Shown: positions 47,143 through 64,000, counted from the first letter of the stretch. The stretch: DNA of 64,000 bases from a bacterium (GCA_028712365.1 JAQTQE010000003.1:20173-84172), one strand, 5' to 3'. Notes: a model not told the origin generated them from the sequence alone. Numbers and translations: made by a program.

Positions 47143-48672
47143 TTAAGATTTCTTTCTAAAGAAGGCTCCTTTAGTAGCACCAATCTTCTCTATATACCCA
47201 ATTAGAAGCATCTTCTTAAAATCCCTCCGAGCGGTTTTTTCGTTTACCTTGAATTTCTTACAATAGGTTCCTATTTCCATGGTTTCATTTTTATTTATCA
47301 TTAACCTTAAAGCCTCTATTTGCCGTTCATTTAAACCTAACTTTCTAAGATCAGTCTGCCGTTCTTCCGGGACACTCGGCACTAAATCCAGAATCTTGTC
47401 TCCGGGGCCAAAAAAGCGGGTTACAAAGAACTCACCTTCTTCTTCAAACACAGGTACAGACAGCCCATGGGCTTTCATTAGCTTTTTCATTTTGCTGATT
47501 CCGGTACCAAAGCGCTCCATGTCCATAGTTTCATGGAAAATATGACAGATTGCTTTATTGCGCGTAGCATGATGCCCTTCAAGCTTCTTTATATTAAGGC
47601 CTGGTAATAAACCGCCAGGATTACTGACTTCCACTCGATCATCGAAAATTGAAACCATAATTGGAGCTCCGCTTTTTGTATAATCGCGATGTGCTATGGC
47701 ATTAATGATGGATTCGCGTACAGCTTCGTATGGATATTCAGGTATATCGACCCGTTTGAACTCGACGATTTTATTGGCTAATCTAGTATTGCGGATGAAA
47801 AAAGATTTCACTTCATCAAGCATCTTATAAATCGGACCTTTAATTTCCTGTGAGTCAATAAACTCCGAGCGAGTCGTTCCTTTATAGCGAGCTATACGGA
47901 TTTCATGATGGGAAATATGGTCAGAAGGAGCTTTACCAAAGAAAAGAAGAGCGGTATTAGTGGGATGCAAATCCCCATCTTCCTTTCTTATTACCTTAAG
48001 GGTGTCAATAAGAAATTTCCTTATTGTTATTTTTGGAATGGCAACTTTCAATTTAACTGCACGATTTTGAAGAAAATCTCTTACTGCCTGCTCATCGATA
48101 GACTCATATCCAAGATCTCGATGTATTGCTTTATCAAAGGGGCCTTTTGTGGATTCTATTTTATCTTCAAGAAAAGAATTAAGGCTGTTAAGAACCTGAG
48201 TTTTTAATTCATCAATATTTAGAAAACGCTTATAAATAAAGTCCGCTCTGATATTTTTAACAAAGTTCTGTGTGTCCTGGTCTCGCCTGAAATCATCTGT
48301 AGAATCACCTTTGATAAATGCAATTATTTCCCTGTCTGAGTGCGTTTTTAAAAAATGTTGAAATTCCCTTTCCGTAGCGGAGAGATTATCCTTCCCTTTA
48401 TACCCATAATTCTTACCAATTATGCACACATAAATATTGCTATCAGCGACGTTTTTAAGATAAGTTACTGCTGGTGACTTTCCTTTAGCAGGCAGATCTT
48501 CAAATAGAAAAACATCAAAAAACTTCTGAAGAGTGGCATTGTTGTCTACTACTCCTTTTATGGCAAAGCGTTCAGCTTTTAGTTCTTTCTGATTTGCGCT
48601 TACGAATATTTTATATGTCATATCCCAGCCTTTGAGATTTATTTTTGTTCTTGGACTCTCAAATACTTTCAA
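47143..48672 (-). CDS. DUF4062-like N-terminal domain fused to Schlafen/AlbA_2 and a HATPase_c_4-type C-terminal domain (RecG-C-terminal-like 'transcriptional regulator')
   Basis: N-terminal IFVSANQKELKAERFAIKG matches the VFISSTFxDLxxER DUF4062 motif. The middle and C-terminal regions (…IAHRDYT…VSNPGGL…GTGI…) fit the AlbA_2 + HATPase_c_4 architecture. Confidence 0.55.
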   Translation of the reverse strand: MKVFESPRTKINLKGWDMTYKIFVSANQKELKAERFAIKGVVDNNATLQKFFDVFLFEDLPAKGKSPAVTYLKNVADSNIYVCIIGKNYGYKGKDNLSATEREFQHFLKTHSDREIIAFIKGDSTDDFRRDQDTQNFVKNIRADFIYKRFLNIDELKTQVLNSLNSFLEDKIESTKGPFDKAIHRDLGYESIDEQAVRDFLQNRAVKLKVAIPKITIRKFLIDTLKVIRKEDGDLHPTNTALLFFGKAPSDHISHHEIRIARYKGTTRSEFIDSQEIKGPIYKMLDEVKSFFIRNTRLANKIVEFKRVDIPEYPYEAVRESIINAIAHRDYTKSGAPIMVSIFDDRVEVSNPGGLLPGLNIKKLEGHHATRNKAICHIFHETMDMERFGTGISKMKKLMKAHGLSVPVFEEEGEFFVTRFFGPGDKILDLVPSVPEERQTDLRKLGLNERQIEALRLMINKNETMEIGTYCKKFKVNEKTARRDFKKMLLIGYIEKIGATKGAFFRKKS

Positions 48673-50255: not shown

Positions 50256-51545
50256 TTATGTTATATTGTCTAACACAGCCCGCGCTGGGAGCAAAGCCAA
50301 CAAATTTTCAGTTTTTGCGCGATAACCTTTATCCGTCTGCACTATAAGATCAAGATGCATAAGCTCGTTTAAATCTCTACTTAACATTTTAGAGGAACCC
50401 TGTTTATAATAATCAACAATTTTAGGACTTAATGCCACCAATCCCTCTTTAGGTACGGGTTCATTTTTATCTGCAAGTTCGATAACGAGTGCCCGCATTC
50501 GCTTTGATGGTGTCTCAGATCTCTTATGTTCTTTAAATTTATCATATACGTAACTTTCCCAGGAAATTTCTAATACTTGCTTAAAAATATATTGCAATTG
50601 CTCAGCGAGCCCATCACGAAATCCTTGTATAGCATAGGTAATAAATTCGCAAATATTTCGTTTTTGAGTTGCAACGCTTAATTGCCTGTAATATTCGCTA
50701 CGGGTCAGATTGTAATGATTACTAAGAAGATGCGCGGCCGGAGAAGGAACTCCTGAGGCAATCAGGATGGCAAATTCCAGCAAACGCCCGACTCTTCCAT
50801 TGCCATCTCCAAATGGATGTACCCATTCAAGGTATAAATGTGCCACTATCGCTTTAATAATACTATTGGCAATTGGATGGGCGTCGGGGATTATAAAATA
50901 GTCACTATTTAACCAAATGCACATCTTATCCATTAAAAAATCAACATCTTGCGAATCAACTGCTTTATATACCCCAGCTACAACTGGAACGCTTCTAAAT
51001 TCACCCGGGATAGCATAATCAGGACAAGGAACATTTTGCAGGATAATTTTATTAAATCGCTTAATCTCTTCTTTGGATACTACGAATTTTTTGCCATTAC
51101 AAATTGTATCTTTTAGTTCGTTACATAAAAACAATATATTTTCTACTTCTTGTTTTAAATATTCTCGCGAAGGAGGAACTTCCAATTTATTATCTATAAT
51201 TTGCCTAACCTGTCCTTCTGAAAGCGTATTACCTTCAATAGCTGTTGTTGCACTAGCACCTTTAGCTAGGTATACCTTGTGCATTTCTTCCGCAATTGCT
51301 GGCTTTAGGGGTATGCGAGAAAGATGCTCACATTTCGACAAACACTCCCCAATTTGGACCCATGTTAAGGAAGGCAGGGCATTTAAGTTAACCTCAAATG
51401 CCAACCAAGGATATTTGCTAATAATGTCTTTATTTATGTCCATTAAATTGTCCTCAATAATGCCAATAATATCAACTAAATTACAATATATGTCATATAT
51501 TATGTCCAATATTAAGATATCATAAAATAATATATTTGTCAACAA
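50256..51545 (-). CDS. Fic/Doc-family protein (AMPylase-type)
   Basis: Canonical Fic motif HPFGDGNGRVGR. Confidence 0.8.
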   Translation of the reverse strand: MLTNILFYDILILDIIYDIYCNLVDIIGIIEDNLMDINKDIISKYPWLAFEVNLNALPSLTWVQIGECLSKCEHLSRIPLKPAIAEEMHKVYLAKGASATTAIEGNTLSEGQVRQIIDNKLEVPPSREYLKQEVENILFLCNELKDTICNGKKFVVSKEEIKRFNKIILQNVPCPDYAIPGEFRSVPVVAGVYKAVDSQDVDFLMDKMCIWLNSDYFIIPDAHPIANSIIKAIVAHLYLEWVHPFGDGNGRVGRLLEFAILIASGVPSPAAHLLSNHYNLTRSEYYRQLSVATQKRNICEFITYAIQGFRDGLAEQLQYIFKQVLEISWESYVYDKFKEHKRSETPSKRMRALVIELADKNEPVPKEGLVALSPKIVDYYKQGSSKMLSRDLNELMHLDLIVQTDKGYRAKTENLLALLPARAVLDNIT

Positions 51546-51595: not shown

Positions 51596-51778
51596 TTAAT
51601 AGCGAGGGCTTACTTTATTTGCTTTTATATAATTCTCGACATCTATAATGTCAAATTTTGTTAATCTGCCAACCTTTACATACGGGAATTTCTTCATAGA
51701 TACCCAGCTATATAGTGTATTTACACTTATATTCAGTATTGAGGCAGTTTCTTTTATTCCCATAAGCCTTGATGCCAT
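51596..51778 (-). CDS. AlpA/Xis-family small HTH DNA-binding protein
   Basis: 60 aa; IKETASILNISVNTLYSWVSMKKFPYVKVGRLTKFDIIDVENYI resembles excisionase/AlpA HTH_17. Confidence 0.65.
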   Translation of the reverse strand: MASRLMGIKETASILNISVNTLYSWVSMKKFPYVKVGRLTKFDIIDVENYIKANKVSPRY

Positions 51779-51874: not shown

Positions 51875-53599
51875 TCATGAATGTCCCTTATCTTTCCAGT
51901 ACTGTGCATCAACCTTAATGAACTCCAAACGAGCCGGGTCAATCCACGAGATGAAAGAGGACGGCGTTTTCCATTTGCCAGCGAAGTTTCGGGTGCGAAT
52001 CAGGGTGCATTTTTTGCGTGTGCGAGTGAGCCCGACCACAAACTTGCAGATCTCGAGATCCTTGATTGAAGCCGAATCATGCGGTAATTCCCCATTGTGC
52101 AGACCAGCGATGTACACGTGTTGTGCGGAGAGGCCCTTGGCTCCCTCGAAGGAGGTCACTTTGACAGTAGGGATGTCCACTGATGCGTGAGTCTCTGCTT
52201 CAGCTTCTAGCTCCTCTGCCGGTTGGTACGCATTGGCCTCAGCCAGCACGTGCTCGCGGTATTCACTTGGGAGTACGTCAACAAGACGGTGCCTACCAGC
52301 TGCAGTCGCGACAATAGCTTCATGGAGAAAGGAAGGAGAGTCTGTACCAAGAACAATTCGCCAACCGAGATTAGAGAACTGATCAACTTTCAGAATCAAT
52401 AGACCCACTTCCCGATTGAGCTTGGTATCGGAGTCGCGCCGTGTGTCGACATTGTACCCCACGCTTTCAAGATGGCTGACGACTTGATCGCGGTAAGGCT
52501 GTGCCGCGATGACTAGTGCCGCAGGGTAGCCACCACGCAAAGCTGTCTCAATCTCATCCGATGGAATCTGGGCAATAGCTTGCGTGAGGTAGCGCCCCAT
52601 GTAGTTCACTTTCTGTCTCTGAACCGACGTCTCCACGTGCGCAATTTTCGGGTACTTTGCGCTGTCAGATCCCTTTGCAGGAGGAAAGTGTTTGTAGGGC
52701 TTATCAATCCTCCCTTCGAGACTGTCCAGCTCCTTAGCCTGGGTCAGCACGTCATTGACTGCATCGACGATCACCTTTGGGCAACGCATACAGAACGGAA
52801 GCTTGAAGACCTGATACTCCCCGGCATTGCTGAGGAGCCGGATATGATCCCAACTAGCATCGCGCAGCTGACTATACAGAGCCTGGTCATCATCACCGGC
52901 AATCAGGATGGGGCTACATTCAGCCAAAATGTCGATAACCCCCGCCTCAAGTGCGTTGAAGTCCTGGTACTCGTCAATTAGAATAAGCTTGTAGGAATTG
53001 GGCACAACATGCCCTGATGATAGTCCCTTATACACTCTGTAAACGGTATCGTCGAAATCGACCGCGTCGTAGTACTTGCCACGAGATAGGTAGAATGGAA
53101 TATGGTTCTCTTCTTTAAGCGAACGCATCTCGCTAACAAACTGAGGAGCATCATTTTGAGTGATAATCTCCCAGTCCGCTGCGATAAGGCTCGCAAGCCC
53201 GGGACAGCAGCGAAAATCTGTCGATAGAGACTTTCTGAGTGCCGGTTCGCGGTGCAGTAGGCCTAGGCAGTATGAGTGAAGCGTGAATACCTTAGCCAGT
53301 TCGCTTAGATCGTCCTCCAAATCGTTCTTTAGGTTGTTAATAAATGTGAGGACAATCCGCTGATCAGGCGTACCAGGTGCAAGCTCGAGCATCTGCTTGA
53401 AAAGCGTCGTCTTGCCGGTACCTGGGCCGGCAATCACCAGTTTCTTCTCACTGGGGGAACTCAGTACAGCCTTGATGGCGGCTCTGAGTTCAGCCATTTC
53501 CGGACCCTGCTTCTTGTCCTCTGACATGTCCCCCTCCAACTCCAGGCAATCAATCCAACGACAAAACTCACAGTTGCGGCTCTGCCGCATCCTGTACAT
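51875..53599 (-). CDS. UvrD/Rep-family (SF1) DNA helicase, GC-rich relative to its surroundings
   Basis: Walker A AGPGTGKTT; LILIDEYQDFN (motif II); C-terminal VTSFEGAKGLSAQHVYIAGL…GLTRTRKKC, typical of UvrD_C. Confidence 0.75.
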   Translation of the reverse strand: MYRMRQSRNCEFCRWIDCLELEGDMSEDKKQGPEMAELRAAIKAVLSSPSEKKLVIAGPGTGKTTLFKQMLELAPGTPDQRIVLTFINNLKNDLEDDLSELAKVFTLHSYCLGLLHREPALRKSLSTDFRCCPGLASLIAADWEIITQNDAPQFVSEMRSLKEENHIPFYLSRGKYYDAVDFDDTVYRVYKGLSSGHVVPNSYKLILIDEYQDFNALEAGVIDILAECSPILIAGDDDQALYSQLRDASWDHIRLLSNAGEYQVFKLPFCMRCPKVIVDAVNDVLTQAKELDSLEGRIDKPYKHFPPAKGSDSAKYPKIAHVETSVQRQKVNYMGRYLTQAIAQIPSDEIETALRGGYPAALVIAAQPYRDQVVSHLESVGYNVDTRRDSDTKLNREVGLLILKVDQFSNLGWRIVLGTDSPSFLHEAIVATAAGRHRLVDVLPSEYREHVLAEANAYQPAEELEAEAETHASVDIPTVKVTSFEGAKGLSAQHVYIAGLHNGELPHDSASIKDLEICKFVVGLTRTRKKCTLIRTRNFAGKWKTPSSFISWIDPARLEFIKVDAQYWKDKGHS

Positions 53600-53604
53600 G
53601 CTGG

Positions 53605-54480
53605 TTAGGTATTTTGTTTTGCATACACTTGTTCAAATGAATCAAATAATCTCATATTAACAGAATTTATCCATTTAAATAAATTTTCAAAATAATCCAA
53701 GTCTACGTCTATTCTTTTTAACCATAATATATATGGCTCATTTGTAAATCGTAGTAAAGGAGTGATGAATCTCATATCTACAGACTGATAATGAGGGTAT
53801 GTTGAAAATGTGCCGTCTTTATTACGTATTAAATTAAAATCCATAGACTCGTTCCAAGAACCATGTATTGATTCTGAAGGAATTCCATATAAATATTTAT
53901 ACATATCCTCACGAAATAGTTCTTTAAATATTTGATAAAAACTTTTCCCTGAGAGTTTCCATTTATTTTTCTTTTGCTCACTAAATGAAGCTACTGTTAG
54001 CTCTTCAGCATTCATTTTTTCTAAAATTGACTTTTTTAACCTAACACCCGCTGGAGTTTTAAAAAAGCCGGAAGATCTTTGTGAATCAACAATTATGTTT
54101 AACCGATCCTTGTATGAACACTTCCTGTAGTCTTCCACAACATTATCTCCATTAAGCAAAAGATATTTTGCAATAACAGCAGATTCCAATATTTGTCTAT
54201 CCAGAAGAGAAATTATATCACCTTTGTTTTCCTTATAATAGTAAACAACTTCTTTAAGAATTTTCCAAACCCTTATTAATAAACCCAATATTGCAGCATC
54301 ATTAAAATTATATCCGGTGGGATTTCTATCAATATTTATTATTCTTGTTATTGCATCATATATATCAGCAACATCTCCATAAAAATTATTAGAAAAGTCT
54401 TTCATTCTATCAAGTGAGGATAGCGCAAGGCTTATGTCAATTTCTTTATATTGATCAATAATATTTTGTATTTCTTCCAT
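53605..54480 (-). CDS. Hypothetical protein (291 aa), 5 bp upstream of the helicase
   Basis: ORF; the island cis-element lies upstream. Confidence 0.4.
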   Translation of the reverse strand: MEEIQNIIDQYKEIDISLALSSLDRMKDFSNNFYGDVADIYDAITRIINIDRNPTGYNFNDAAILGLLIRVWKILKEVVYYYKENKGDIISLLDRQILESAVIAKYLLLNGDNVVEDYRKCSYKDRLNIIVDSQRSSGFFKTPAGVRLKKSILEKMNAEELTVASFSEQKKNKWKLSGKSFYQIFKELFREDMYKYLYGIPSESIHGSWNESMDFNLIRNKDGTFSTYPHYQSVDMRFITPLLRFTNEPYILWLKRIDVDLDYFENLFKWINSVNMRLFDSFEQVYAKQNT

Positions 54481-54507: not shown

Positions 54508-54550
54508 GCATAATACTCATTTATTTAATTATTATTGTGTTCCCCGATTT
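54508..54550 (-). promoter_or_regulatory. Island cis-element copy (c)
   Basis: AAATCGGGGAACACAATAATAATTAAATAAATGAGTATTATG. Confidence 0.45.
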
Positions 54551-55334
54551 CATCTACTTTCTTAATTGAATTTAGGATGTCTTGTTGGTTTCTAAAGGAT
54601 TGCACGGGAAGTGTCTTTGCCCATTGTTCTAAAGTTCTTATCTTGAAATTGTAGTTTATAAGTAATTGCCTCTTAGTGAACCTTAATAGGCTTGGATCCT
54701 TAATAATAAATTGTAGCCGAGTAAATAAAATCTCATACTGAGCGAACAATGCAACACAATATATAAACGGCAGGAACATCAATAACATTACCGGTGGTAA
54801 AGCCAAGTCCTTTAGGGTCTGTATCTTCGCAAGGTTTCTGAAATCGCTGAGAATATGATAGAAGGCATAGCCGAAAATCCATAGACCAAACATTATTAGG
54901 ATATCATTTAACAGTTTCTGGACAGGCTTGTACTTCTCATTAGTTTCCGCTACTGCAAGCATTCCCCCGATAAGTGCAGCAATAGGCACTAGAATGAACT
55001 CAATGATTAAGCTAAATACATATAAGTTAACGATGAAGTCAATAAACACAGTGAATCTTATACTATCTTTTACAGCCTTTGTAAAAAAGTGCGAATCTTC
55101 AATGATATTATTAATTTGGAAAAGCATTATTGTAGCAATAGTCATACCCCAGATGATGGTTGATTTCAGCTGAGATATATCCCAGAGTCCAATGCGAGAA
55201 AGTACTACGACCTCTAAAACGATATAAAATAGCATCAAAACCGCTGAGACTATGATTGGCGTTACAAAAAGTGCTTTAAAAACCTGCTCTAGTGACTGCC
55301 TAATATGATTTTTAGTTAATGCCCAAATTAGCAA
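54525..55334 (-). CDS. Hypothetical polytopic membrane protein (about 7 TM segments)
   Basis: Hydrophobicity pattern; the island cis-element lies upstream. Confidence 0.45.
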   Translation of the reverse strand: MLIWALTKNHIRQSLEQVFKALFVTPIIVSAVLMLFYIVLEVVVLSRIGLWDISQLKSTIIWGMTIATIMLFQINNIIEDSHFFTKAVKDSIRFTVFIDFIVNLYVFSLIIEFILVPIAALIGGMLAVAETNEKYKPVQKLLNDILIMFGLWIFGYAFYHILSDFRNLAKIQTLKDLALPPVMLLMFLPFIYCVALFAQYEILFTRLQFIIKDPSLLRFTKRQLLINYNFKIRTLEQWAKTLPVQSFRNQQDILNSIKKVDEIGEHNNN

Positions 55335-55540: not shown

Positions 55541-56578
55541 TTAGCAACAGTCGCATAAATTTATTTCATTAAAAACTGAACAGCCACCCTTGCAGACTGA
55601 GAAATGTAAACACGCTTTACATTTCTCATAAATGATCTTGCTACGCATATCACGAAACACGGAGGCGTTTTGCCAAGCATCTAAAATCGAAACGCTTCTC
55701 AGATCTATCCCAGTAACCTCGCGTTCCATAAAGGAACATGGGTAAAACATCATTTTTTCAGAAATAAAGGCAGAAAAACGCCCCGCTTCACACGCTTCAA
55801 CCGATATGGGGTTATATTTAAGTTGACTAACTATGCCAGGAACGCAACAACTATCAAACCCAATCTTTATCTTGGAAGTACTAATTAGCGAAAAGAATAA
55901 CTCGGCGTCGGAAGACATCCTTAAGATATTTGAATGACTTCCTTTTCCAGCAGGTTTAAATAATAAAAATATTAGAGCGTTAACTCCAGATACCTTTTGA
56001 ATGCCCCTTGATAAAAATTCTATCGCAGAATCAAGTGTGCTGGCAGACAACACAAAATGAACATTTGTTTTAATTCCTGCATCTATCAATTTATTCAAAT
56101 TTGAATAAAACAAAGTTTCCGGCTCATAAAAACTAATTGCAACAGCTCCACAATGCATCCTTGATGCGGCAAGAATTCTGTCAGATAAGCCATCCCCATT
56201 CGTGGTATAAGAAGGGACGATATTATATTTCTCTCGCGTTACTTCAAGGATCCTTTCAAAGCTAGAATGTTGATTAGGATTTCCGCCGCCAAGGGCTACT
56301 TGCAAGGCCCCACAGTCCCTCGCTTGTTTTAAAATGTATTCATAATCAGCAAGAGACATCTCCTTCCCATTTATTGACGATGCCCTATAGCAAAAAGAAC
56401 AGCTCCTTTCACAATAATTTGTTATTGATATATCAAGAAGCTCAGGACCATGCACGGAATAGACCGGCTCGACAGTATTTTCATCTTCAACACGAGCAAA
56501 AAAACCGGTATTTTGATTGAAAATAACGGTATATCTTTCCTTATCATATCGCTTAAGCAACAAAGAGTTCATTTTCAC
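55541..56578 (-). CDS. Radical SAM enzyme with a C-terminal SPASM domain (anSME/peptide-maturase-like)
   Basis: CX3CX2C radical-SAM motif CERSCSFC. Full SPASM Cys set: C…YPC and CKACLHFSVCKGGC (CX2CX5CX3C). Confidence 0.8.
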   Translation of the reverse strand: MKMNSLLLKRYDKERYTVIFNQNTGFFARVEDENTVEPVYSVHGPELLDISITNYCERSCSFCYRASSINGKEMSLADYEYILKQARDCGALQVALGGGNPNQHSSFERILEVTREKYNIVPSYTTNGDGLSDRILAASRMHCGAVAISFYEPETLFYSNLNKLIDAGIKTNVHFVLSASTLDSAIEFLSRGIQKVSGVNALIFLLFKPAGKGSHSNILRMSSDAELFFSLISTSKIKIGFDSCCVPGIVSQLKYNPISVEACEAGRFSAFISEKMMFYPCSFMEREVTGIDLRSVSILDAWQNASVFRDMRSKIIYEKCKACLHFSVCKGGCSVFNEINLCDCC

Positions 56579-56994
56579 CAGCTTGAATTCGATGCATCAA
56601 TGTAAATGCTTTTTCCCTCAATCTTAAAAGAATCACAGCAAAAAAATGTTTCCATAGCATTTACATCTGAAGATAAAGTCCCGAAATAGAGGGAATCGCC
56701 CCTTTCCTTAGCAAGCTTGATCCTCTCGACTAAATCGTTAGAAAAAATATCGCTAATAAAAGCGTCCCATTGTTTACCTTTATTCCACCGATGGGAAGTC
56801 ACAGCGGAGTCGAAGGGTTCCTTATTAGAAGCAAACGTTCTATACAATTCTTTAAACATAGAATAAACTGGCGATTTATTGTTAATGCCAACGCACCTCA
56901 TAAACTGATCTTCCGTGAATTCTTGGCCCTTCCTGAGAACTATAACAAAACATGTAGACGAGCTGTTTGTTACAAAGTCGAATTTAATCTTCAT
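56575..56994 (-). CDS. Hypothetical protein (139 aa), translationally coupled
   Basis: 4-nt overlap with the rSAM gene; 11-nt overlap with the upstream ORF. Confidence 0.4.
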   Translation of the reverse strand: MKIKFDFVTNSSSTCFVIVLRKGQEFTEDQFMRCVGINNKSPVYSMFKELYRTFASNKEPFDSAVTSHRWNKGKQWDAFISDIFSNDLVERIKLAKERGDSLYFGTLSSDVNAMETFFCCDSFKIEGKSIYIDASNSSW

Positions 56995-57424
56995 CTGACA
57001 CTCCTAGCACGGAACTTAATATATTCTGGGCGCCATCAGAACTCATAATAAACATTTCTAAATTGTAATCGCCTGTAACGTGCTCTTTCCGCCACAACAA
57101 CGCCGTGTTCTTATACTTTAATAACTTCTTCTCCCCAACCACGGCTACTTTGGCGGGAAGATTGTACTTCTTTTGAAGAAAGTCACTAAATGTTCCATAT
57201 TCACGATTGTGATACTTTCTATACTCATCAAACAAATCGATCATCTCAGAATAAAAACAATCATAGACTCTACTAAATAGATTCCACGCAAAGAAACCAG
57301 AACGGACCTTTATTGCCTTTAATAAATTACGTTTACTAATATTCTTTACGACATGAAAAATATAAGTTTTATCATGGTCTTTCTTATACTCGTAGAAGAT
57401 CAATTGACACCTCTTATTTTCCAC
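56984..57424 (-). CDS. Hypothetical protein (146 aa), translationally coupled
   Basis: Overlaps both neighbours. Confidence 0.4.
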   Translation of the reverse strand: MENKRCQLIFYEYKKDHDKTYIFHVVKNISKRNLLKAIKVRSGFFAWNLFSRVYDCFYSEMIDLFDEYRKYHNREYGTFSDFLQKKYNLPAKVAVVGEKKLLKYKNTALLWRKEHVTGDYNLEMFIMSSDGAQNILSSVLGVSDED

Positions 57425-59639
57425 CGAATTCCTTTATTAAAGTAATGGCCTTCCCCTTGTAATAACGATTACTACATTTCGCATACTTCTCAAGTATCTT
57501 TAAAGCAGGTTCAGGATACTTTTTATAAAATGACGAAAGAATGTGCTTCGCAGTTGAAGCCATACCTATCTTTTCTCCAGATGCGATGAAAAATAATAAT
57601 TCTAAGGCCTGATTATTTGCATCTTGGCTCCTTATAGCCTCATCGATAAATTCAAAATAATGATCTAATTTTATGCCAGTTTCACTATTACCATAGGCAA
57701 CAGACAGATGTTCGTTGTAAAAATGATTCTCAAATTTATCCAAACGCTCATCATCAGACAATTCGATTAAGATCGGGAAAAGCATAGTAATATTCAGGTT
57801 TTTATACGTCTGCGGATCATATCGATAATAAATTAGCATTTCCAAAATGAACTCGGCTTTATCTCTAGATGACAAATATTCCTCTTTAACTTTATTGACA
57901 TCTTCACTAGTTAAGTCACCATCATTTGTTTCAAACAAATAATGAAGGTATTTGTCCTTGTGCCATGCTGTTGCTTCTAATATTGGCTCAAGCTTCATGT
58001 TTTTACGGTCCTTTTTCGAGAAGAAAAACAGGTATTTACTTACCCCTTCGAACAAAGGTTTCTGAGGCAAAATCTCATCAGTAATAAATCTTGTGCATTT
58101 TGACTCATCCTCGGATAGCAATATATTGACCAAATAGTCGGCAATCAAATAATCTCTGATTTCGTCAAAAGTAAAACTTATGACTTCCCCATCCCGCAAA
58201 ACGCCAGCCTTATCAGCTACATCTCTTCTAAAAAATATGTTTTCATCTATTAACTTGCGCAATACATTTTTATCAGTCGTGGCTTTATCAATAATCATTT
58301 GCATGGGAACGTCTTTATATAATTTGGAATCAATCATATGTCGCACTACTTCACAAATAACTTTTTGAATAGAAGTATTTCCATCAACCTTTCCCCTTAT
58401 TCCATCCCTGATCTGTCTATAGTATTCTTGAAAAAGATCCAACATGTATACGTTTAATATTGAACCAATGCTTTGGCCTTGATGCACCTCACAAAAAATA
58501 CGCAATAATAAGAAATTATTTACTAGCTTCTCGTAGACTCTTCCATCAAACGACTTCCATTCTATTTTAAATAACGAAAGATACTTTCTGAACAAATTGT
58601 CTTTTTCATGTTCCTCAAGTTTCGAATTTATGCCATTAATTATATTTATCTCTGAAGCAAACGACGATTTTTCTATGCTCTTAAAATTCAAATTATAATA
58701 TTCTGTTCTACATGTCAGGATTATCCTAACAAAAGGATTGCTGAGCAAATCTCTGATAAATATGTCTAATGCGTTAGGGAAGTTTGCATCACTCGATTCA
58801 TTCATAGCATCGACAATAAAAATGAAAATTGTTTTTCTTTGTTTGCATTCATTATCTATAAAATTATTTAAAGAATTAAAATCTAGTCCGCCGGTTATTC
58901 TTTCTGTAACAAAATCTTTCATAGAGTTATTATGTATTCCATAGAAGTCGGCCCCATAAAATAAGGCAACGGGGATCTCCAGTTTTAACAAAAATTCTCT
59001 TGTGAGGTCACATATTAGGTTTGTTTTACCTTGACCCGCGTCATCTAACAGCACAAGAACGCGCGACTTTAATAAATTAAACTTTGCATTGGTCTCTTCC
59101 ATCTTCCAGCGAGCTTGCCAAGGGAAATCATTGCTTTTTTCTGGCATACTTTCCAAAACTTTTGAGTTTTGAAAAATTACAACGCGTAACTCCTCGATCT
59201 TAGCTTTAAATGCTCTTAAAGAAGGATGCGAGAGCTTCCGAAAAACCTTAAAAACGATTCTCTGTTTAATCTCTCTTTTGAGCACAGAATTTGTGTATGT
59301 AAAATCGCGCCTATTTAAATGATCTATGAACTTATTACAAAATAAAAACGGATGACAAAAATATCTGAGCCCCTCTTTAATTTGATTGATTTCAATATAA
59401 GAATCGGGCAGGTATTTTTTTGAATTGATTTGTTTTTGAAGTTGATCCTGCGTAAATAACAGTAGTTTCTTTCTAATAGCGATATGCTGTTTATTACGTT
59501 TGAAGCGCTCTTGAATAAAATTAAAAAGCCCTTTAACAAGTCCTTTCAAAAAAGGCACCACAGTCAAAGTTACTACTAGGCCGACTCCTAGCGCAACGGA
59601 ATTCTGGTAAACATATTGTTTTACTGATTGCCAATCCAT
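57414..59639 (-). CDS. Membrane-anchored P-loop NTPase (STAND/KAP-like) with a C-terminal helical-repeat region
   Basis: N-terminal TM helix; Walker A LLDDAGQGKTNL; Walker B IFIFIVDAMNE; long α-helical C-terminus. Its start overlaps the hsdR stop by 1 nt. Confidence 0.6.
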   Translation of the reverse strand: MDWQSVKQYVYQNSVALGVGLVVTLTVVPFLKGLVKGLFNFIQERFKRNKQHIAIRKKLLLFTQDQLQKQINSKKYLPDSYIEINQIKEGLRYFCHPFLFCNKFIDHLNRRDFTYTNSVLKREIKQRIVFKVFRKLSHPSLRAFKAKIEELRVVIFQNSKVLESMPEKSNDFPWQARWKMEETNAKFNLLKSRVLVLLDDAGQGKTNLICDLTREFLLKLEIPVALFYGADFYGIHNNSMKDFVTERITGGLDFNSLNNFIDNECKQRKTIFIFIVDAMNESSDANFPNALDIFIRDLLSNPFVRIILTCRTEYYNLNFKSIEKSSFASEINIINGINSKLEEHEKDNLFRKYLSLFKIEWKSFDGRVYEKLVNNFLLLRIFCEVHQGQSIGSILNVYMLDLFQEYYRQIRDGIRGKVDGNTSIQKVICEVVRHMIDSKLYKDVPMQMIIDKATTDKNVLRKLIDENIFFRRDVADKAGVLRDGEVISFTFDEIRDYLIADYLVNILLSEDESKCTRFITDEILPQKPLFEGVSKYLFFFSKKDRKNMKLEPILEATAWHKDKYLHYLFETNDGDLTSEDVNKVKEEYLSSRDKAEFILEMLIYYRYDPQTYKNLNITMLFPILIELSDDERLDKFENHFYNEHLSVAYGNSETGIKLDHYFEFIDEAIRSQDANNQALELLFFIASGEKIGMASTAKHILSSFYKKYPEPALKILEKYAKCSNRYYKGKAITLIKEFGGK

Positions 59640-62608
59640 TAATAATACTCCCTAATGTAACCATAAGCCCGATCGAATAGATCTTGGTCAGTGTGCAGGC
59701 TATACTTAAGAAGGGTCTTGCGCAGGGCTTTTTTGACTTCACGTTCACCGGCTGCGGTAGATTGCCACCCGGGGAAACGCACCACCTTAACGATTTCATC
59801 TATATCATTTACTATGCGCTCAACAATCGCAGGCGTCTGGTCTGTGCGTACTTGCAAGAATAGATCTGTGAGGGCTGACTTGGCCCCCTTGCGTTCTTCC
59901 TGCGTTTCTTCGTCTTTCTCAGCCTGAACAACTTCCTTGGCCAACTCAATCAAATGCTTAAGGAAATCAACGCTATTGATCAGTCCGCGCTCTACCTTAT
60001 CGCGCAATTCTTCAAGCCGCTGACCAAGTTCCTCGAATTTGGGATTACCTTTATGCTTCCGCAGGCGATTAACAATTTCGATTTCAATCAGCTGAGTTTT
60101 TTTGGTATCCTTGGTTTTCATTAAATCCTCGACAACATCAGCATCGAGGATGATCTTTTCCAAATCATCGCTAATCTTCTCGACATGAATATGTTCATGA
60201 ATGAGCTTCATGGTCTGAGCGCCCAATGCATGCCACAAAAGACGGCCAGTATCGCTGGACGGCGGCTTTACCGATTCATAGACTTTAGTTAGCCAGCGAT
60301 AATCCTTCTCGTACACATTAAGAATGGCATCCGGCGACAACGCCTCCCAAAGAAGCGACAAATAGCTGTAATCATTCGCAAAAGCATCCCTCTTTGTATT
60401 CGTATTCACGCATTCCTGCGCAAGTAAAAGCCCCTCGTATCCTTCAACGCTTCTATCCACGTTCGGGAAATGCTCCAGACACATGGTCATCGCATGCTTC
60501 AATTTTTCTTTCAGGGTGCCAATATTTGTGATCACTTGCCGCACCGAAGCCTCGTCAAATTCCAAAGCCCGGGCTACATTATCAAAAACTCCGTAATAAT
60601 CCACGATCAATCCATGCGTTTTGTCTTTGTAAACACGGTTTGTGCGGCAAATAGCCTGCAACAGATTGTGATCCTTCATCGCCTTATCCAAATACATAGC
60701 CTGCAAAATCGGCGCATCGAAACCCGTTAAAAGCTTGGCTGTTACAATTACAAATTTAAGCGGATCCATTGGATCGCGGAATCTGTCTAAAAGTTTCTCC
60801 TGCTCATCCCGATCCATTCGATACTTCTTTTTGAAAGACTCATCATCTGAATGATTTATTGAGATTACTACCGCGCTCTCCTCGGGTGGAATAAGTTTGT
60901 CCAGTTCCTGCTTATACTGTTCGCAGGCAAAACGATCCGGACAGACGATCTGTGCCTTGAAACCTTGTGGCTCAATCTTCTCGTGGAAGTGCTGAACAAT
61001 GTCCTCTGCAATCTTCCTCACCCGATCTGGTGACTTTAAAAACGCAGACATCTGCGCCGCCTTTTGCACAAGCAATGCTTTCTGCTCATCCGATAGAGTT
61101 TCTGTCATCTGAGCAAATTCCGCGTCTATCAACTCTTTATCAACGTGTATGTCCAGAAGCCGCGGTTCAAAATGAAGTGGGAGCGTTGCTTTATCCCGCA
61201 AAGATTCTTCAAATGAATATCTGGATAAATATCCGGACAAATCCTCTTCCGCGCTGAAAGTCCTAAAGGTATTTCTGTCGCGCTTATTAATGGGCGTACC
61301 GGTAAGACCAAAGAAAAAAGCATTCGGCAACGCATTACGCATCTTACGTCCCAAGTCGCCTTCTTGAGTCCGGTGCGCCTCATCAACTAATGCGATAATG
61401 TTCTCCCGATCATTCAGAAGACCATCCGCTTCGGCAAATTTATGCATGGTAGTAATGATAATCTTGCGCGTGTCCTGCTTTAAAAGACGTTGTAATTCTT
61501 CCCGGCTATCCGTAGCTACGATATTGGGAACATCAGACGCATTAAACGTGGCGGTAATCTGGGTATCAAGGTCAATGCGGTCAACAACGATTAAAACCGT
61601 AGGACTCTTTAGCTCTGGTGCCTGACGCATCTTCTGCGCGGCAAAAACCATCAAAAGCGACTTGCCTGAGCCTTGGAAATGCCAAATGAGCCCTTTCTTA
61701 ACCACGCCCTCTTTGACACGCTGAACGATTTGGTTTGCGCCTTCAAACTGCTGATAACGAGCGATGATCTTGATTCGTCGATTTTTTCTATCTGTCGCAA
61801 AGATTGTAAAATTCTCCAGCATATCCAAAATAACAGACGGCTTGAGCATTGATTCGATGGCAACCTCAACCTCTTTAAGGCCGAGAAGCTCTTTTAATGC
61901 AGTGTCATTCTTTGACTCATCGCGCCAAGGCCCCCATATTTCAAGCGGCATGCGGATTGAGCCATAACGGAATGTTTTCCCTTCAGACGCAAACGAAAAG
62001 ATATTCGGGACAAAAAGCTCTGGAATTGTGTTCTCATAATCATCATGGATCTGCACCGCACCATCCAGCCAAGAGATAGACGGTCTCACTGGAGTCTTGA
62101 ACTCGCCAACAACCACCGGAATGCCATTAATAAGCAAAACCATATCTGGAATTTTGGTGACGCCACGGATAATCTTGTATTGATTGGTCGCAATAAAGCT
62201 ATTGTTGGACAACTTTTCAAAATCAATCAATCGCACAGGAACATGCTGGTTATTTTCTCCAAAGGGCATTGTCTTTTCGCCCTGAAGCCATTTTGTAAAC
62301 TCCTCATTCGCCTTTACTAATCCAACATCATTAACTGATAGAAGAATAGCGCGGAGCTTATAAATAACTTCATCCGCGCGCTCAGGCAACGCACAAATCT
62401 CTGGATTGATCCGGATAAGCGCGTCTTTTAGCATCTTCTCAATAAGAACTTCGCCTTCATCGCGACCCAGATCATCTGCTGACACATATTTCCATTGAAC
62501 CGTTTCGGCGTATTCCGGACGCGCGCTGTCTCCAATACCACCAGAGCCTTGACCGAGTAGCTTAGAGATTACATATTGCTCGATTGTGTTTTGCTCGTTA
62601 AAAATCAT
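59639..62608 (-). CDS. hsdR: Type I restriction enzyme R subunit
   Basis: SF2 helicase motifs (FQGSGKS, DEAH-like VDEAHR), an N-terminal nuclease-domain pattern, and a size of about 989 aa. Confidence 0.9.
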   Translation of the reverse strand: MIFNEQNTIEQYVISKLLGQGSGGIGDSARPEYAETVQWKYVSADDLGRDEGEVLIEKMLKDALIRINPEICALPERADEVIYKLRAILLSVNDVGLVKANEEFTKWLQGEKTMPFGENNQHVPVRLIDFEKLSNNSFIATNQYKIIRGVTKIPDMVLLINGIPVVVGEFKTPVRPSISWLDGAVQIHDDYENTIPELFVPNIFSFASEGKTFRYGSIRMPLEIWGPWRDESKNDTALKELLGLKEVEVAIESMLKPSVILDMLENFTIFATDRKNRRIKIIARYQQFEGANQIVQRVKEGVVKKGLIWHFQGSGKSLLMVFAAQKMRQAPELKSPTVLIVVDRIDLDTQITATFNASDVPNIVATDSREELQRLLKQDTRKIIITTMHKFAEADGLLNDRENIIALVDEAHRTQEGDLGRKMRNALPNAFFFGLTGTPINKRDRNTFRTFSAEEDLSGYLSRYSFEESLRDKATLPLHFEPRLLDIHVDKELIDAEFAQMTETLSDEQKALLVQKAAQMSAFLKSPDRVRKIAEDIVQHFHEKIEPQGFKAQIVCPDRFACEQYKQELDKLIPPEESAVVISINHSDDESFKKKYRMDRDEQEKLLDRFRDPMDPLKFVIVTAKLLTGFDAPILQAMYLDKAMKDHNLLQAICRTNRVYKDKTHGLIVDYYGVFDNVARALEFDEASVRQVITNIGTLKEKLKHAMTMCLEHFPNVDRSVEGYEGLLLAQECVNTNTKRDAFANDYSYLSLLWEALSPDAILNVYEKDYRWLTKVYESVKPPSSDTGRLLWHALGAQTMKLIHEHIHVEKISDDLEKIILDADVVEDLMKTKDTKKTQLIEIEIVNRLRKHKGNPKFEELGQRLEELRDKVERGLINSVDFLKHLIELAKEVVQAEKDEETQEERKGAKSALTDLFLQVRTDQTPAIVERIVNDIDEIVKVVRFPGWQSTAAGEREVKKALRKTLLKYSLHTDQDLFDRAYGYIREYY

Positions 62609-62734
62609 ACCTTCCCCTCGTCAATCTCAGCATTTTCACAATATCAAATAAGCCAATGGTTACGCCTGCGACAATCGGATTATCTGTTCCCACATCAGAT
62701 ATTTTTTTTAATTTTAAACGGCCTTTTGCCATGC

Positions 62735-63898
62735 TTATCCAAATATTTGGTTGATGATTTGTTTTTGAATTTGATATTGTAAACCTATGTTTTCAGTAAC
62801 AGCATCTATATTACCCATTAGTCCGATTATGCCGTTGACAATTTTGTCCTGATCCTTTTTAGTAGGGCAATAAACTTGTATCGCCTCCAAATTTTTTCTG
62901 CTTATTCTTGATCGTGTCGTACCGGAAGCCAATGACTCAATCTTTCTTTTCATAGAATCTGAATTTAGCAAATGTACCCAGTAAAGTTTATTATGTAGAT
63001 TTTCATCGATCCGAATAATGCAGCAGTCAACCGCTGTAATCATTTTATATCCAATATCGGGAACAATGCATGCTCGTCCAATAGGATCTGGCATTCTTGC
63101 TAAAAGTATATCTCCCGGCAAAACTTCGAAACAATTCAGGCGCTTAAAAGTATCCTCTGTTATAAAACGCCTTGATTTGTCTAAAAACACTCCTACGCCA
63201 ATATCAGCCAATTGGAGCAACCGGATTCCTTCTTCAGATTGATCCTTTGATTCAATCCAATCCCCATCCATAAAACCATTCACTGTCTTAGAAGCAATAT
63301 CTCGAAGCTGAATACTTTCACATTTGACATTTACAATGGTTTTTTCAACAACTACCCTAAATAACTGTTTCAGTTCACTCAAAAGGCACTTCTTTTTTTC
63401 TGTCGCCTCATCAATACTCCACAACAAATCCGCGATGCGCTTTTGGTCGCCAAGATGCGGCATTCTGAATTCTTGCTCGGCCAAAATCTTCCATTTAATC
63501 GTTGGTGACAAGGATCCTTCCGAGACATCAACTGCTCTGTGCATAAATACATCCGAATGTATGAAAAACGGCATAAGCTCTGGAAGAATCACTTTAGGAT
63601 TGGCCCGCACAACCATCGCATGCGCCGAACATATGCCATCAAAGTCGACAATAGCCGCCTTACGTTGATAAGCACGACGCTTGCCAAAAATAATATCCCC
63701 CGGATACACTCGTAACTTTGTCCCTTTAACATCAGACGGATGCCCTTTTCTCTTTATGTGGATACAATCCGGATCAATGTGCTCTAAGCCAACATAAATA
63801 TCCAGCTTCGTTTCCTTGGGTTCGGCGCGTTCGGATATGCTCAAGGCTATATCTCCAAACTTATATGTTTTCCTCTGGGACTTATTAATTTTAATCAT
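62735..63898 (-). CDS. hsdS: Type I restriction-modification specificity subunit
   Basis: Two target-recognition domains separated by conserved coiled-coil repeats; start overlaps the hsdM stop (ATGA). Confidence 0.85.
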   Translation of the reverse strand: MIKINKSQRKTYKFGDIALSISERAEPKETKLDIYVGLEHIDPDCIHIKRKGHPSDVKGTKLRVYPGDIIFGKRRAYQRKAAIVDFDGICSAHAMVVRANPKVILPELMPFFIHSDVFMHRAVDVSEGSLSPTIKWKILAEQEFRMPHLGDQKRIADLLWSIDEATEKKKCLLSELKQLFRVVVEKTIVNVKCESIQLRDIASKTVNGFMDGDWIESKDQSEEGIRLLQLADIGVGVFLDKSRRFITEDTFKRLNCFEVLPGDILLARMPDPIGRACIVPDIGYKMITAVDCCIIRIDENLHNKLYWVHLLNSDSMKRKIESLASGTTRSRISRKNLEAIQVYCPTKKDQDKIVNGIIGLMGNIDAVTENIGLQYQIQKQIINQIFG

Positions 63899-64000
63899 GA
63901 ATTTTTCTCAAGTGCCTTAAATAGACCAGCCATATCATTTCTCAGGGCTTCGCTACCTTCTTGCCATGCAAGCACCATGTCTTTGAGGTGAACGTCACCG
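63895..64000 (-). CDS. hsdM: Type I R-M methyltransferase subunit, C-terminal fragment only (window edge)
   Basis: Open frame to the window end terminating …LFKALEKNS*; position upstream of hsdS. Confidence 0.45.
   Translation of the reverse strand, partial: GDVHLKDMVLAWQEGSEALRNDMAGLFKALEKNS

Follow-up and report, generated by a model that had tools for sequence, protein, structure and literature searches.

A putative Avs2-type anti-phage cassette with a radical-SAM/SPASM module at the end of a type I restriction-modification operon

The window analysed here is a stretch of 64,000 nucleotides (nt) of bacterial DNA (GCA_028712365.1 JAQTQE010000003.1:20173-84172), over the whole of which positions are numbered; the locus studied covers positions 55541–63898 and extends to the window edge, all on the minus strand. 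It carries, in the order hsdM (3' end)–hsdS–hsdR–STAND–A–B–rSAM, the genes of a type I restriction-modification (R-M) operon followed by genes for a STAND/NACHT NTPase, two small proteins (A and B) and a radical S-adenosylmethionine (SAM) enzyme with a SPASM domain (rSAM). The last four genes (55541–59639) are an autonomous cassette and not part of an obligate seven-gene system. Judged from homology and gene neighbourhoods, they probably form an Avs2-type anti-phage system with an accessory radical-SAM module, and it is tentatively proposed that the enzyme covalently modifies a 16-residue tag at the N-terminus of B.

Autonomy of the cassette and its junction with the restriction operon

Homologous loci (95 in total, numbered L001 onward) were fetched and analysed by open reading frame (ORF) calling and with hidden Markov models (HMMs) built from the first loci. 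The order STAND–A–B–rSAM is strict in 82 of them, most of the others being truncated contigs; type I R-M or BREX genes occur within flanks of ~10 kb in only 13 of 87 roughly non-redundant loci. A preceding interpretation made from the window alone (hereafter the sequence-only reading) had described all seven genes as a single translationally coupled unit. The neighbourhood comparison upholds a real, conserved and defence-like unit for the four AT-rich genes and not for the seven-gene set.

When a single genome of each species was scanned with the B profile, 90 species were positive. Carriers of the cassette are found among Bacteroidota, Firmicutes, Desulfobacterota, Campylobacterota (Sulfurimonas), Nitrospirota, Omnitrophota, Planctomycetota (Planctomycetia), Verrucomicrobiota (Verrucomicrobiia) and methanogens (Methanosarcina, Methanoregula), as well as on plasmids of Alphaproteobacteria (Agrobacterium, Rhizobium, Rhodobacter), where the RefSeq labels read only 'SMEK domain-containing protein / hypothetical protein / radical SAM protein'. 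Culturable carriers include Agrobacterium tumefaciens (At plasmids), Odoribacter laneus, Arenibacter, Cellulophaga, Flavobacterium and Sporomusa.

The genomic settings are diverse. In L001 and L002 the cassette stands behind a 989-amino acid (aa) hsdR with the same overlap as in the window; in L007–9 and L062 it is inserted in BREX between PglX and PglZ (in L007–9, PglX to PglZ/BrxL, with an SMEK_N-STAND), and in L010 it separates hsdM from hsdR within another type I operon. Elsewhere it adjoins integrase and AAA_15/21 genes without hsdR (L005) or lipase, resolvase and integrase genes (L003), follows AbiGi (L006) or is carried by a mobilisable element (Odoribacter laneus); AbiEii, AbiGi, AriA/PtuA/GajA-like ATPases and integrases also occur as neighbours. 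Nesting of defence genes in R-M or BREX operons is known, e.g., BrxU in BREX and Hma-embedded candidates. The cassette resembles these cases by its positions in BREX (PglX–PglZ) and in or behind type I R-M operons, but belongs to other gene families, constitutes a four-gene STAND system and is nested only facultatively.

Some relatives show additional genes at the cassette borders. A gene combining dCMP-deaminase and HATPase_c_4 domains lies within the R-M operon of L010, adjoining the cassette. In L004, L011 and L012 (e.g., L011:2622–9475) the cassette is located immediately downstream of TatD-QueC-QueE-like-QueD genes (7-deazaguanine/queuosine-type). A Firmicutes clade (L060, L063, L066, L069, L070, L072, L074, L077, L079, L081, L085, L087, L091) possesses a six-gene operon, in which the gene for a ~393-aa metallo-β-lactamase-fold protein (PADLOC LmuA/Avs1a/RTasMBL-like, E down to 1e-66) ends 7–13 nt before that for a protease-STAND (example locus L072:5606–12394). 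The gene after rSAM encodes, in most loci of the clade, a ~313-aa protein that probably accounts for the PF21648 'integron cassette protein' matches in eight neighbours.

Within the window, the hsdR stop and the STAND start have a single base in common (TAATG), i.e., the 1-nt overlap had been read correctly, and the last hsdR codons (R-E-Y-Y-stop) hold a Shine-Dalgarno-like AGGGAG for the cassette. The junction AGGGAGTATTATTRATGG, which encodes the end of HsdR (R-E-Y-Y) with its stop and the beginning of STAND, is kept in seven loci (window, L001, L002, L013, L015, L016, L017), so that the co-occurrence of hsdR with the NTPase–rSAM module recurs elsewhere, in metagenome-assembled genomes (MAGs) labelled as different phyla. 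The hsdR–STAND join is limited to this one clade. The same leader, as Shine-Dalgarno sequence plus start, precedes the cassette of L005, a 71 % identical relative without hsdR. HsdR is 94–97 % identical between the window and its relatives, as against 69–83 % for the cassette proteins of the same loci, and DNA identity (window versus L001) steps down from ~90 % in hsdR to ~78 % past the junction and to 60–68 % in the STAND C-terminal domain. Since the junction is kept in seven loci and HsdR is 94–97 % identical, the composite is real and has moved between lineages, which bears out the composite origin suggested earlier; it represents a mobile cassette that has docked onto an R-M operon in one particular lineage. 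The compositional contrast on which that suggestion had rested is real but smaller than supposed, G+C content being 0.45 in hsdR and 0.34–0.38 in the cassette genes instead of 48–50 % versus ~33 %. Near-identical HsdR proteins (window 59609–62608 compared with L001, L002, L013 and L016) occur across MAGs labelled Omnitrophota, Planctomycetia and 'bacterium'.

An obligate seven-gene defence system, with R-M genes and STAND/rSAM module depending on each other, would account for the overlap of the hsdR stop with the STAND start and for the junction and collinear homology in seven loci from MAGs of different phyla. It would also agree with the lack of a convincing terminator or promoter at the hsdR–STAND junction: a consensus scan of 53.5–64 kb returned promoter-like sites (29 found, 31.6 expected) and terminator-like sites (9 found, 7.8 expected) at chance level, and nothing convincing of either kind at the gene junctions of the locus. 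Co-transcription of the cassette with hsdR is plausible. However, more than 70 cassette loci have no R-M gene within ~10 kb, L005 retains the leader without hsdR, the cassette is elsewhere nested in BREX or at another position of another type I operon, and HsdR is conserved to a much higher degree than the cassette proteins of the same loci. Moreover, hsdS and hsdR are 126 nt apart, contradicting a start/stop overlap through the entire gene set. Mutual dependence is therefore very unlikely, and nothing indicates a functional dependence between the R-M genes and the cassette.

All ORFs of the locus are intact, tightly packed and on the same strand, at the positions that had been read from the sequence, and HsdR and HsdS pass their family models. 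The 3' end of hsdM (type I methyltransferase, 63895–64000, minus strand) is cut by the window edge and was recognised by blastn, window positions 63984–63408 aligning with 88.7 % identity to L001 4953–5529, i.e., to an HsdM (N6_Mtase)/HsdS junction. The specificity subunit HsdS (62735–63898, minus strand; 387 aa) matches PF01420 (E 2.7e-15) and PADLOC Specificity_I (E 1.1e-106), and the 989-aa restriction subunit HsdR (59639–62608, minus strand) matches TIGR00348 (552 bits, cut-off 284) and PADLOC REase_I (E 1.5e-138). HsdR, HsdS and HsdM are thus all encoded, assigning the operon to type I R-M.

The cassette follows on the minus strand with STAND (57414–59639; 741 aa), A (56984–57403), B (56575–56994; 139 aa, unannotated family) and rSAM (55541–56578; 345 aa). 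Homologues of A begin with MIFYEY, corresponding to TTG at 57403 in the window with GAGGTG just upstream; A therefore probably comprises 139 aa (146 aa if it starts at GTG 57424), and a 10-nt gap would separate it from STAND in place of the 11-nt overlap noted before. Homologues of rSAM begin at the residue corresponding to M3 of the window enzyme (343 aa), so that B and rSAM may be 2 nt apart instead of overlapping by the 4 nt described earlier.

The Avs2-like receptor and its comparison with known systems

The PADLOC Avs2 model PDLC02164 covers STAND residues 184–512 (E 1.4e-21), and PADLOC Avs2 models are the best match for the STAND cores of 10 of 10 relatives tested; the match to nSTAND3 is weak, and PDB sequences gave no match to STAND. 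Walker A (GQGKT, residue 202) and Walker B (IFIFIVDAMNE, residue 271) motifs are present as previously described, as is the N-terminal transmembrane (TM) helix, predicted by hydropathy scan at residues 10–39 (59523–59612, minus strand). STAND has 197 homologues, ten of them at 65–76 % identity. Lengths in the family span 710–1178 aa, and since the N-terminus varies, the position of Walker A ranges over residues 133–455.

The TM helix occupies the site of enzymatic effector domains in relatives. According to Pfam and PADLOC models, these N-termini comprise trypsin-like protease, SMEK_N (which equals an Argonaute-associated REase-like module in PADLOC), CAP12/Pycsar TIR-like, α/β-hydrolase (lipase-like), PNP_UDP_1 and LmuA/HamA-like modules, NNH5 helical domains and one or more TM helices. 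Such swapping is the pattern of polymorphic effectors known from Avs proteins and from NLR-like proteins of bacteria. The effector is followed by a conserved pre-NTPase region (residues ~68–190; 59070–59438, minus strand) with the signature Q-I-N-S-K-K-Y-[IL]-P...R-Y-F, found in all N-terminal extracts; among 26 STAND N-termini that are otherwise unrelated, K75 and Y76 show almost no variation. The C-terminal helical domain (residues ~513–741; 57417–58103, minus strand) is the most divergent stretch between window and L001 and, by analogy with Avs proteins, is presumed to be the sensor.

Canonical single-gene Avs2 (AVAST type 2) reportedly measures 1300–1500 aa and acts alone. The window protein has in common with it the best-matching NTPase module and the effector–NTPase–sensor logic, but differs by its size of 741 aa (relatives 710–1178 aa) and by its constant association with A, B and rSAM.

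The sequence-only reading had named no described defence system that combines type I restriction with a STAND NTPase and a SPASM maturase. As regards the combination of a STAND with a radical-SAM enzyme this is outdated, since KpAvs2-Avap1-Avap2 is such a system and has been tested experimentally (Béchon et al. 2024, Nat Commun 15:9860, PMC11564622). The KpAvs2 operon encodes an Avs2 with Mrr nuclease N-terminus, the radical-SAM protein Avap1 and Avap2, for which an HHpred match to DUF6375 was reported. Avap2 is required for KpAvs2 defence and binds a helical bundle between effector and NTPase, whereas Avap1 is required against phage T2 but not against SECphi18; viperin-type nucleotides were not found for this operon, and ~5 % of Avs2 homologues have such accessory partners (PMC11564622). 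By analogy with Avap2 on KpAvs2 (PMC11564622), the pre-NTPase region of the window protein is a candidate docking site for A/B.

The comparison with KpAvs2-Avap was made by proxy, using a Deinococcus sp. QL22 plasmid locus of the same architecture (L097; 302-aa rSAM, 139-aa DUF6375 protein with Pfam E 7.6e-51, 1281-aa NACHT protein), and no Klebsiella operon was found when plasmids were searched by tblastn with rSAM and a STAND. Both systems unite an Avs2-type STAND with N-terminal effector, a radical-SAM enzyme and a ~139-aa accessory protein in one operon and often adjoin R-M or BREX. At the sequence level, window and L097 proteins are related in the NTPase module (22 % identity over 341 aa, E 8e-11) and in the N-terminal 116 aa of rSAM including the pre-cluster F-x-x-x-T-G hairpin (29 % identity, E 4e-14). 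In contrast to KpAvs2-Avap, the window cassette has two paralogous small proteins instead of one, and its STAND is about half as long with a short C-terminal domain.

As a system, the cassette is undescribed in PADLOC-DB v2, in agreement with the sequence-only reading: A and B have no match there, STAND matches only the Avs2 NTPase module, and rSAM matches pVip weakly. A literature search likewise retrieved no description of the B family or of the STAND–A–B–rSAM cassette.

The radical-SAM/SPASM enzyme, the tagged protein B and their occurrence in phages

The rSAM protein (55541–56578) contains C56-x3-C60-x2-C63, kept in nine of nine aligned homologues (PF04055, 42.9 bits, cut-off 29.5, E 7.7e-11), and a SPASM domain at residues 263–336 (TIGR04085, 32.5 bits, cut-off 27), with nine further conserved cysteines (C143, C244, C263, C281, C320, C323, C329, C333, C342); both cysteine sets had been anticipated. 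Across 84 cassette loci the enzyme is 41–100 % identical, and the exact window sequence has no entry on record. Among named NCBIfam models it matches those of peptide or haem SPASM maturases best, though every score falls far short of the cut-off, and the nearest solved structures are SuiB (5v1q, E 1e-11) and SkfB. This supports the earlier assignment to the peptide- or protein-type SPASM enzymes. A search of E. coli and Salmonella plasmids returned rSAM proteins of 24.6 % identity, which were discarded as a different 478-aa enzyme in unrelated context.

A housekeeping maturase for sulfatases or cofactors, placed here beside chance neighbours, would suit the anaerobic host (PFOR genes at 34.9–37 kb of the window) and the low-scoring NCBIfam matches to NirJ2, MoaA and PqqE. 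It is effectively refuted, as no NCBIfam equivalog comes within 5-fold of its cut-off (scores 5- to 20-fold below), no cognate sulfatase or other sulfatase/cofactor pathway gene occurs among the neighbours scanned, and the four-gene order is kept across phyla in unrelated contexts. Similarly, weak matches to viperin models (PADLOC pVip, E 1e-8; NCBIfam viperin, E 6.7e-6), restricted to residues 50–150 within the rSAM core, could point towards a second effector that makes an antiviral nucleotide analogue upon STAND triggering, with A/B as adaptors. This is highly improbable in view of the score of 25.5 bits against a cut-off of 180 (NF038283), of the SPASM domain with nine extra conserved cysteines typical of peptide/protein maturases and of SuiB and SkfB as closest structures; in the KpAvs2 operon, moreover, ddh-nucleotides were not detected and the Avap1 model has no NTP pocket (PMC11564622).

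The small proteins do resemble the substrates or scaffolds that had been suggested. Neither A nor B has a match in Pfam, NCBIfam or PADLOC, not even when 35 B and 70 A homologues were scanned permissively. Family-level profile alignment (hhalign probability 95 %, E 3.7e-8, 104 columns) identifies A and B as paralogs, A starting where the tag of B ends and having no N-terminal tag itself. A evolves fast (mean column identity 28 %, E68 as sole invariant residue in 70 sequences), and its AlphaFold2 model is poor (predicted local distance difference test, pLDDT, 54). The model of B, apart from its first ~12 residues, has high confidence (pLDDT 88), predicting a folded ~135-aa protein rather than a short peptide; it has no significant neighbour among PDB and BFVD structures. 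A role of A or B similar to that of a RiPP recognition element (RRE; RiPP, ribosomally synthesised and post-translationally modified peptide) or of PqqD was set aside after no structural match of the winged helix-turn-helix type was obtained.

The most conserved feature of B is its N-terminal tag MKIKFDFVTNSSSTCF (56947–56994, minus strand), recognised by its invariance in homologues. The cellular consensus is MKIKxDFVTNSSSTxF, with D6, T9, N10, S11, S12, S13, T14 and F16 invariant in 35 homologues, which also keep a conserved C-terminal part. The tag always begins at residue 1, and an exhaustive profile search yielded 772 clusters (E<=1e-3), all of them stand-alone proteins of ~110–150 aa matching from residue 1.

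Pairs of rSAM and B also exist apart from the receptor. Four loci from Deltaproteobacteria MAGs (L073:8913–12675, L082:9019–12591, L086:4099–7196, L089:492–2596) encode 2–4 tandem B paralogs followed by an rSAM that is 44–47 % identical to the window enzyme; neither STAND nor A was detected in their fetched flanks. In viral sequences, scanning IMG/VR with the B profile retrieved 52 loci, one of which (L099) is a full cassette. About 35 of the IMG/VR loci contain a full-length rSAM homologue (HMM E 1e-63 to 1e-87; 34–39 % identity with the window enzyme). Tightly packed behind it, in the same orientation, come 2–7 small ORFs, all starting with the tag; these loci contain no STAND and no A (examples among L099–L150: L117:3802–7216, L101:3556–6821, L137:804–6432). 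The viral tag has the form MK[IV][KR]xDF[VI]TNSSS, and D6, T9, N10, S11 and S12 are present in 138 of 138 distinct viral B-like proteins, which are hypervariable outside the tag. On two phage contigs the neighbours encode a DnaE-like polymerase (63 % identical to that of a faecal phage, 37 % to that of Clostridium phage c-st) and an SbcC-like nuclease.

Some viral enzymes (L117:3802–4878, L137:804–1880, L119:4859–6004) include forms with CX7CX6C or CX7CX8C at the CX3CX2C site; that of L101 has the canonical spacing. Cultured T4-like phages of the Slopekvirus type (Miro and ~165 further records, KP15 and Lw1 among them) encode a more distant rSAM/SPASM homologue (HMM E 6.5e-47, 27 % identity to the window enzyme; in Klebsiella phage Miro, L151, at 91043–92197), followed by small hypothetical genes without the B tag. 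The rSAM/B module was absent from the stretch examined of phage c-st and faecal phage MT835469, and tblastn of INPHARED with the viral B N-terminus found nothing, probably because of low-complexity masking.

The arrays in phages and MAGs resemble a maturase with several precursors, but by their sequences fit equally well an enzyme with interchangeable docking subunits. One may ask, then, whether rSAM/SPASM is primarily a maturation enzyme for B proteins as tagged precursors, with STAND regulating this module, or exploiting it as bait or guard, instead of being licensed by it. The module might, for instance, yield modified small proteins that serve in conflicts between phage and host or between elements. 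Such a primary role would explain why rSAM occurs with 2–7 B paralogs, and no STAND or A, on ~35 phage contigs and with tandem B paralogs in four MAG loci, why B is hypervariable everywhere but in its invariant tag, and why the viral enzymes are full-length homologues (34–39 % identity) on contigs carrying phage replication genes. It is nonetheless unlikely: in cellular genomes rSAM/B is almost always locked to an Avs2-like STAND plus A, the pair has no conserved transporter, leader peptidase or immunity gene beside it, B is predicted to be a folded ~135-aa protein instead of a short peptide, and the STAND N-termini are immune effectors, not DNA-binding regulators.

The RiPP-type rSAM/SPASM maturases (SuiB, SkfB, PqqE, QhpD-type) likewise have CX3CX2C plus SPASM auxiliary cysteines and, as in the phage and MAG variants, a single enzyme gene beside several paralogous substrate-like genes. 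They differ in that the putative substrate B would be a folded protein of ~135 aa conserved at its extreme N-terminus, and in that the window cassette has no recognisable RRE, protease or exporter and sits in an immune-receptor operon. A second precedent, for an rSAM-matured defence effector, is the HXS (His-Xaa-Ser) anti-phage system, whose effector is reported to be made ribosomally and then modified by a radical-SAM maturase (Nat Commun 2026, PMC13128918); HXS is described without a STAND receptor, and its maturase belongs to a different enzyme family. The window enzyme scores 18 bits with the HxsC model TIGR03977 (cut-off 267.9), and A and B have no HxS repeats.

Genomic surroundings, proposed mechanism and significance

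Further genes of the surrounding island are encoded on the minus strand of the window. A 269-aa protein (54525–55334), hydrophobic and multi-pass by eye and without family match, begins 206 nt downstream of rSAM; it probably lies outside the cassette, since related loci show no blastn match beyond 55554. A UvrD-like helicase gene (51875–53599) with GajB-like PADLOC matches (E 1e-21) stands out by a G+C content of 0.50–0.53 amid AT-rich DNA; no GajA-like partner was seen beside it, and it is flanked by genes for a DUF5677 protein (53605–54480) and a 60-aa HTH_17 (excisionase-like) protein (51596–51778). A Fic-domain protein (50256–51545; PADLOC SoFic, E 2.2e-51) represents a further defence-type gene of the island. 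A protein with DUF4062 and HATPase_c_4 domains (47143–48672) is also encoded there, and the same architecture occurs at L001:1–726, upstream of the R-M operon.

For the cassette itself, the following mechanism is envisaged. Located at the 3' end of a type I R-M operon and probably co-transcribed with it, the cassette would encode in STAND a combined receptor and executioner: the C-terminal helical domain would sense a phage cue, the Avs2-like NTPase would drive oligomerisation, and the N-terminal module would fire as effector, in the clade of the window as a single, presumably membrane-disrupting TM helix. A, B and rSAM would serve as constant accessory module that licenses or tunes the receptor. 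A and B likely form a pair. Its member A would bind to STAND at the conserved stretch that separates the effector from the NTPase, in the manner of Avap2 on KpAvs2; in B, the 16-residue tag would be the site that the radical-SAM/SPASM enzyme recognises and probably modifies covalently. An anti-phage role of the four genes is the favoured interpretation; a covalent modification of the tag is held with less than even confidence.

Several points weigh against this mechanism. The STAND C-terminal domain is far shorter than that of canonical Avs2, and the NCBIfam Avs2 model NF041813, despite an E value of 1e-16, is matched only over positions 156–488 of 1317 with 60.1 bits against a cut-off of 1000, i.e., there is no full-length equivalence. 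A lone TM helix is a minimal effector, its effector role being a guess. Regarding KpAvs2-Avap, the A and B profiles align with the DUF6375 protein of L097 at an hhalign probability of <1 % (structures were not compared), and PF19902 (DUF6375) is missing from all homologues scanned (35 of B, 70 of A), even at E<=1–10; because A/B are without detectable DUF6375 similarity, the Avap2 analogy rests on position and not on homology. The window rSAM has a full SPASM domain and the Avap1-like L097 enzyme has none, and the gene order is STAND–A–B–rSAM versus rSAM–DUF6375–STAND. Housekeeping genes make up many of the immediate cassette neighbours. Instead of being a substrate, B could act as a subunit for docking or specificity, and the occurrence of rSAM and B in phages shows that the pair has a function independent of the STAND receptor. 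In consideration of both the likenesses to L097 and the differences, the window cassette is filed under the kind 'Avs2 with radical-SAM accessory' and not under the KpAvs2-Avap family.

Somewhat less probable than the proposed tag modification within an Avs2-type system, one may speculate that rSAM/SPASM and B constitute an undescribed protein-tagging or maturation system, in which a single enzyme would recognise, and perhaps chemically alter, the tag MK[IV][KR]xDF[VI]TNSSS[ST]x[FY] on hypervariable small proteins. Large phages encode the enzyme beside arrays of 2–7 such proteins, and in bacteria and archaea one copy (B) would have become wired to an NLR-like receptor together with the tag-less A. 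The receptor may then use a captured phage-type module as bait, guardee or licensing cofactor, which would tie radical-SAM protein chemistry to innate-immune sensing. The novelty of the locus may lie in the tag-bearing B family and its SPASM enzyme, extending into phage genomes. The sequence-only reading had recognised the parts of the locus correctly, but had drawn the unit too wide by including the restriction genes, and had overlooked Avs2-Avap as a published precedent.

STAND/NLR receptors are usually seen as single-protein sensors, KpAvs2 being the one published exception with a radical-SAM partner, for which the role of the enzyme was left unexplained. The cassette family is much larger and sharply defined, comprising ~90 species (one species-level scan) and 772 B-family clusters, and offers handles on the role of rSAM: a SPASM-type enzyme, a 16-residue candidate substrate or docking tag and a paralogous adaptor. 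Since the cassette is present in culturable organisms, genetics and mass spectrometry are feasible. A and B merit family models, and the cassette merits an entry in defence finders. The enzyme/tag pair is also arrayed in phage genomes, therefore suggesting a conflict module common to both sides; if true, this would represent a new kind of post-translational chemistry in phage–host interactions.

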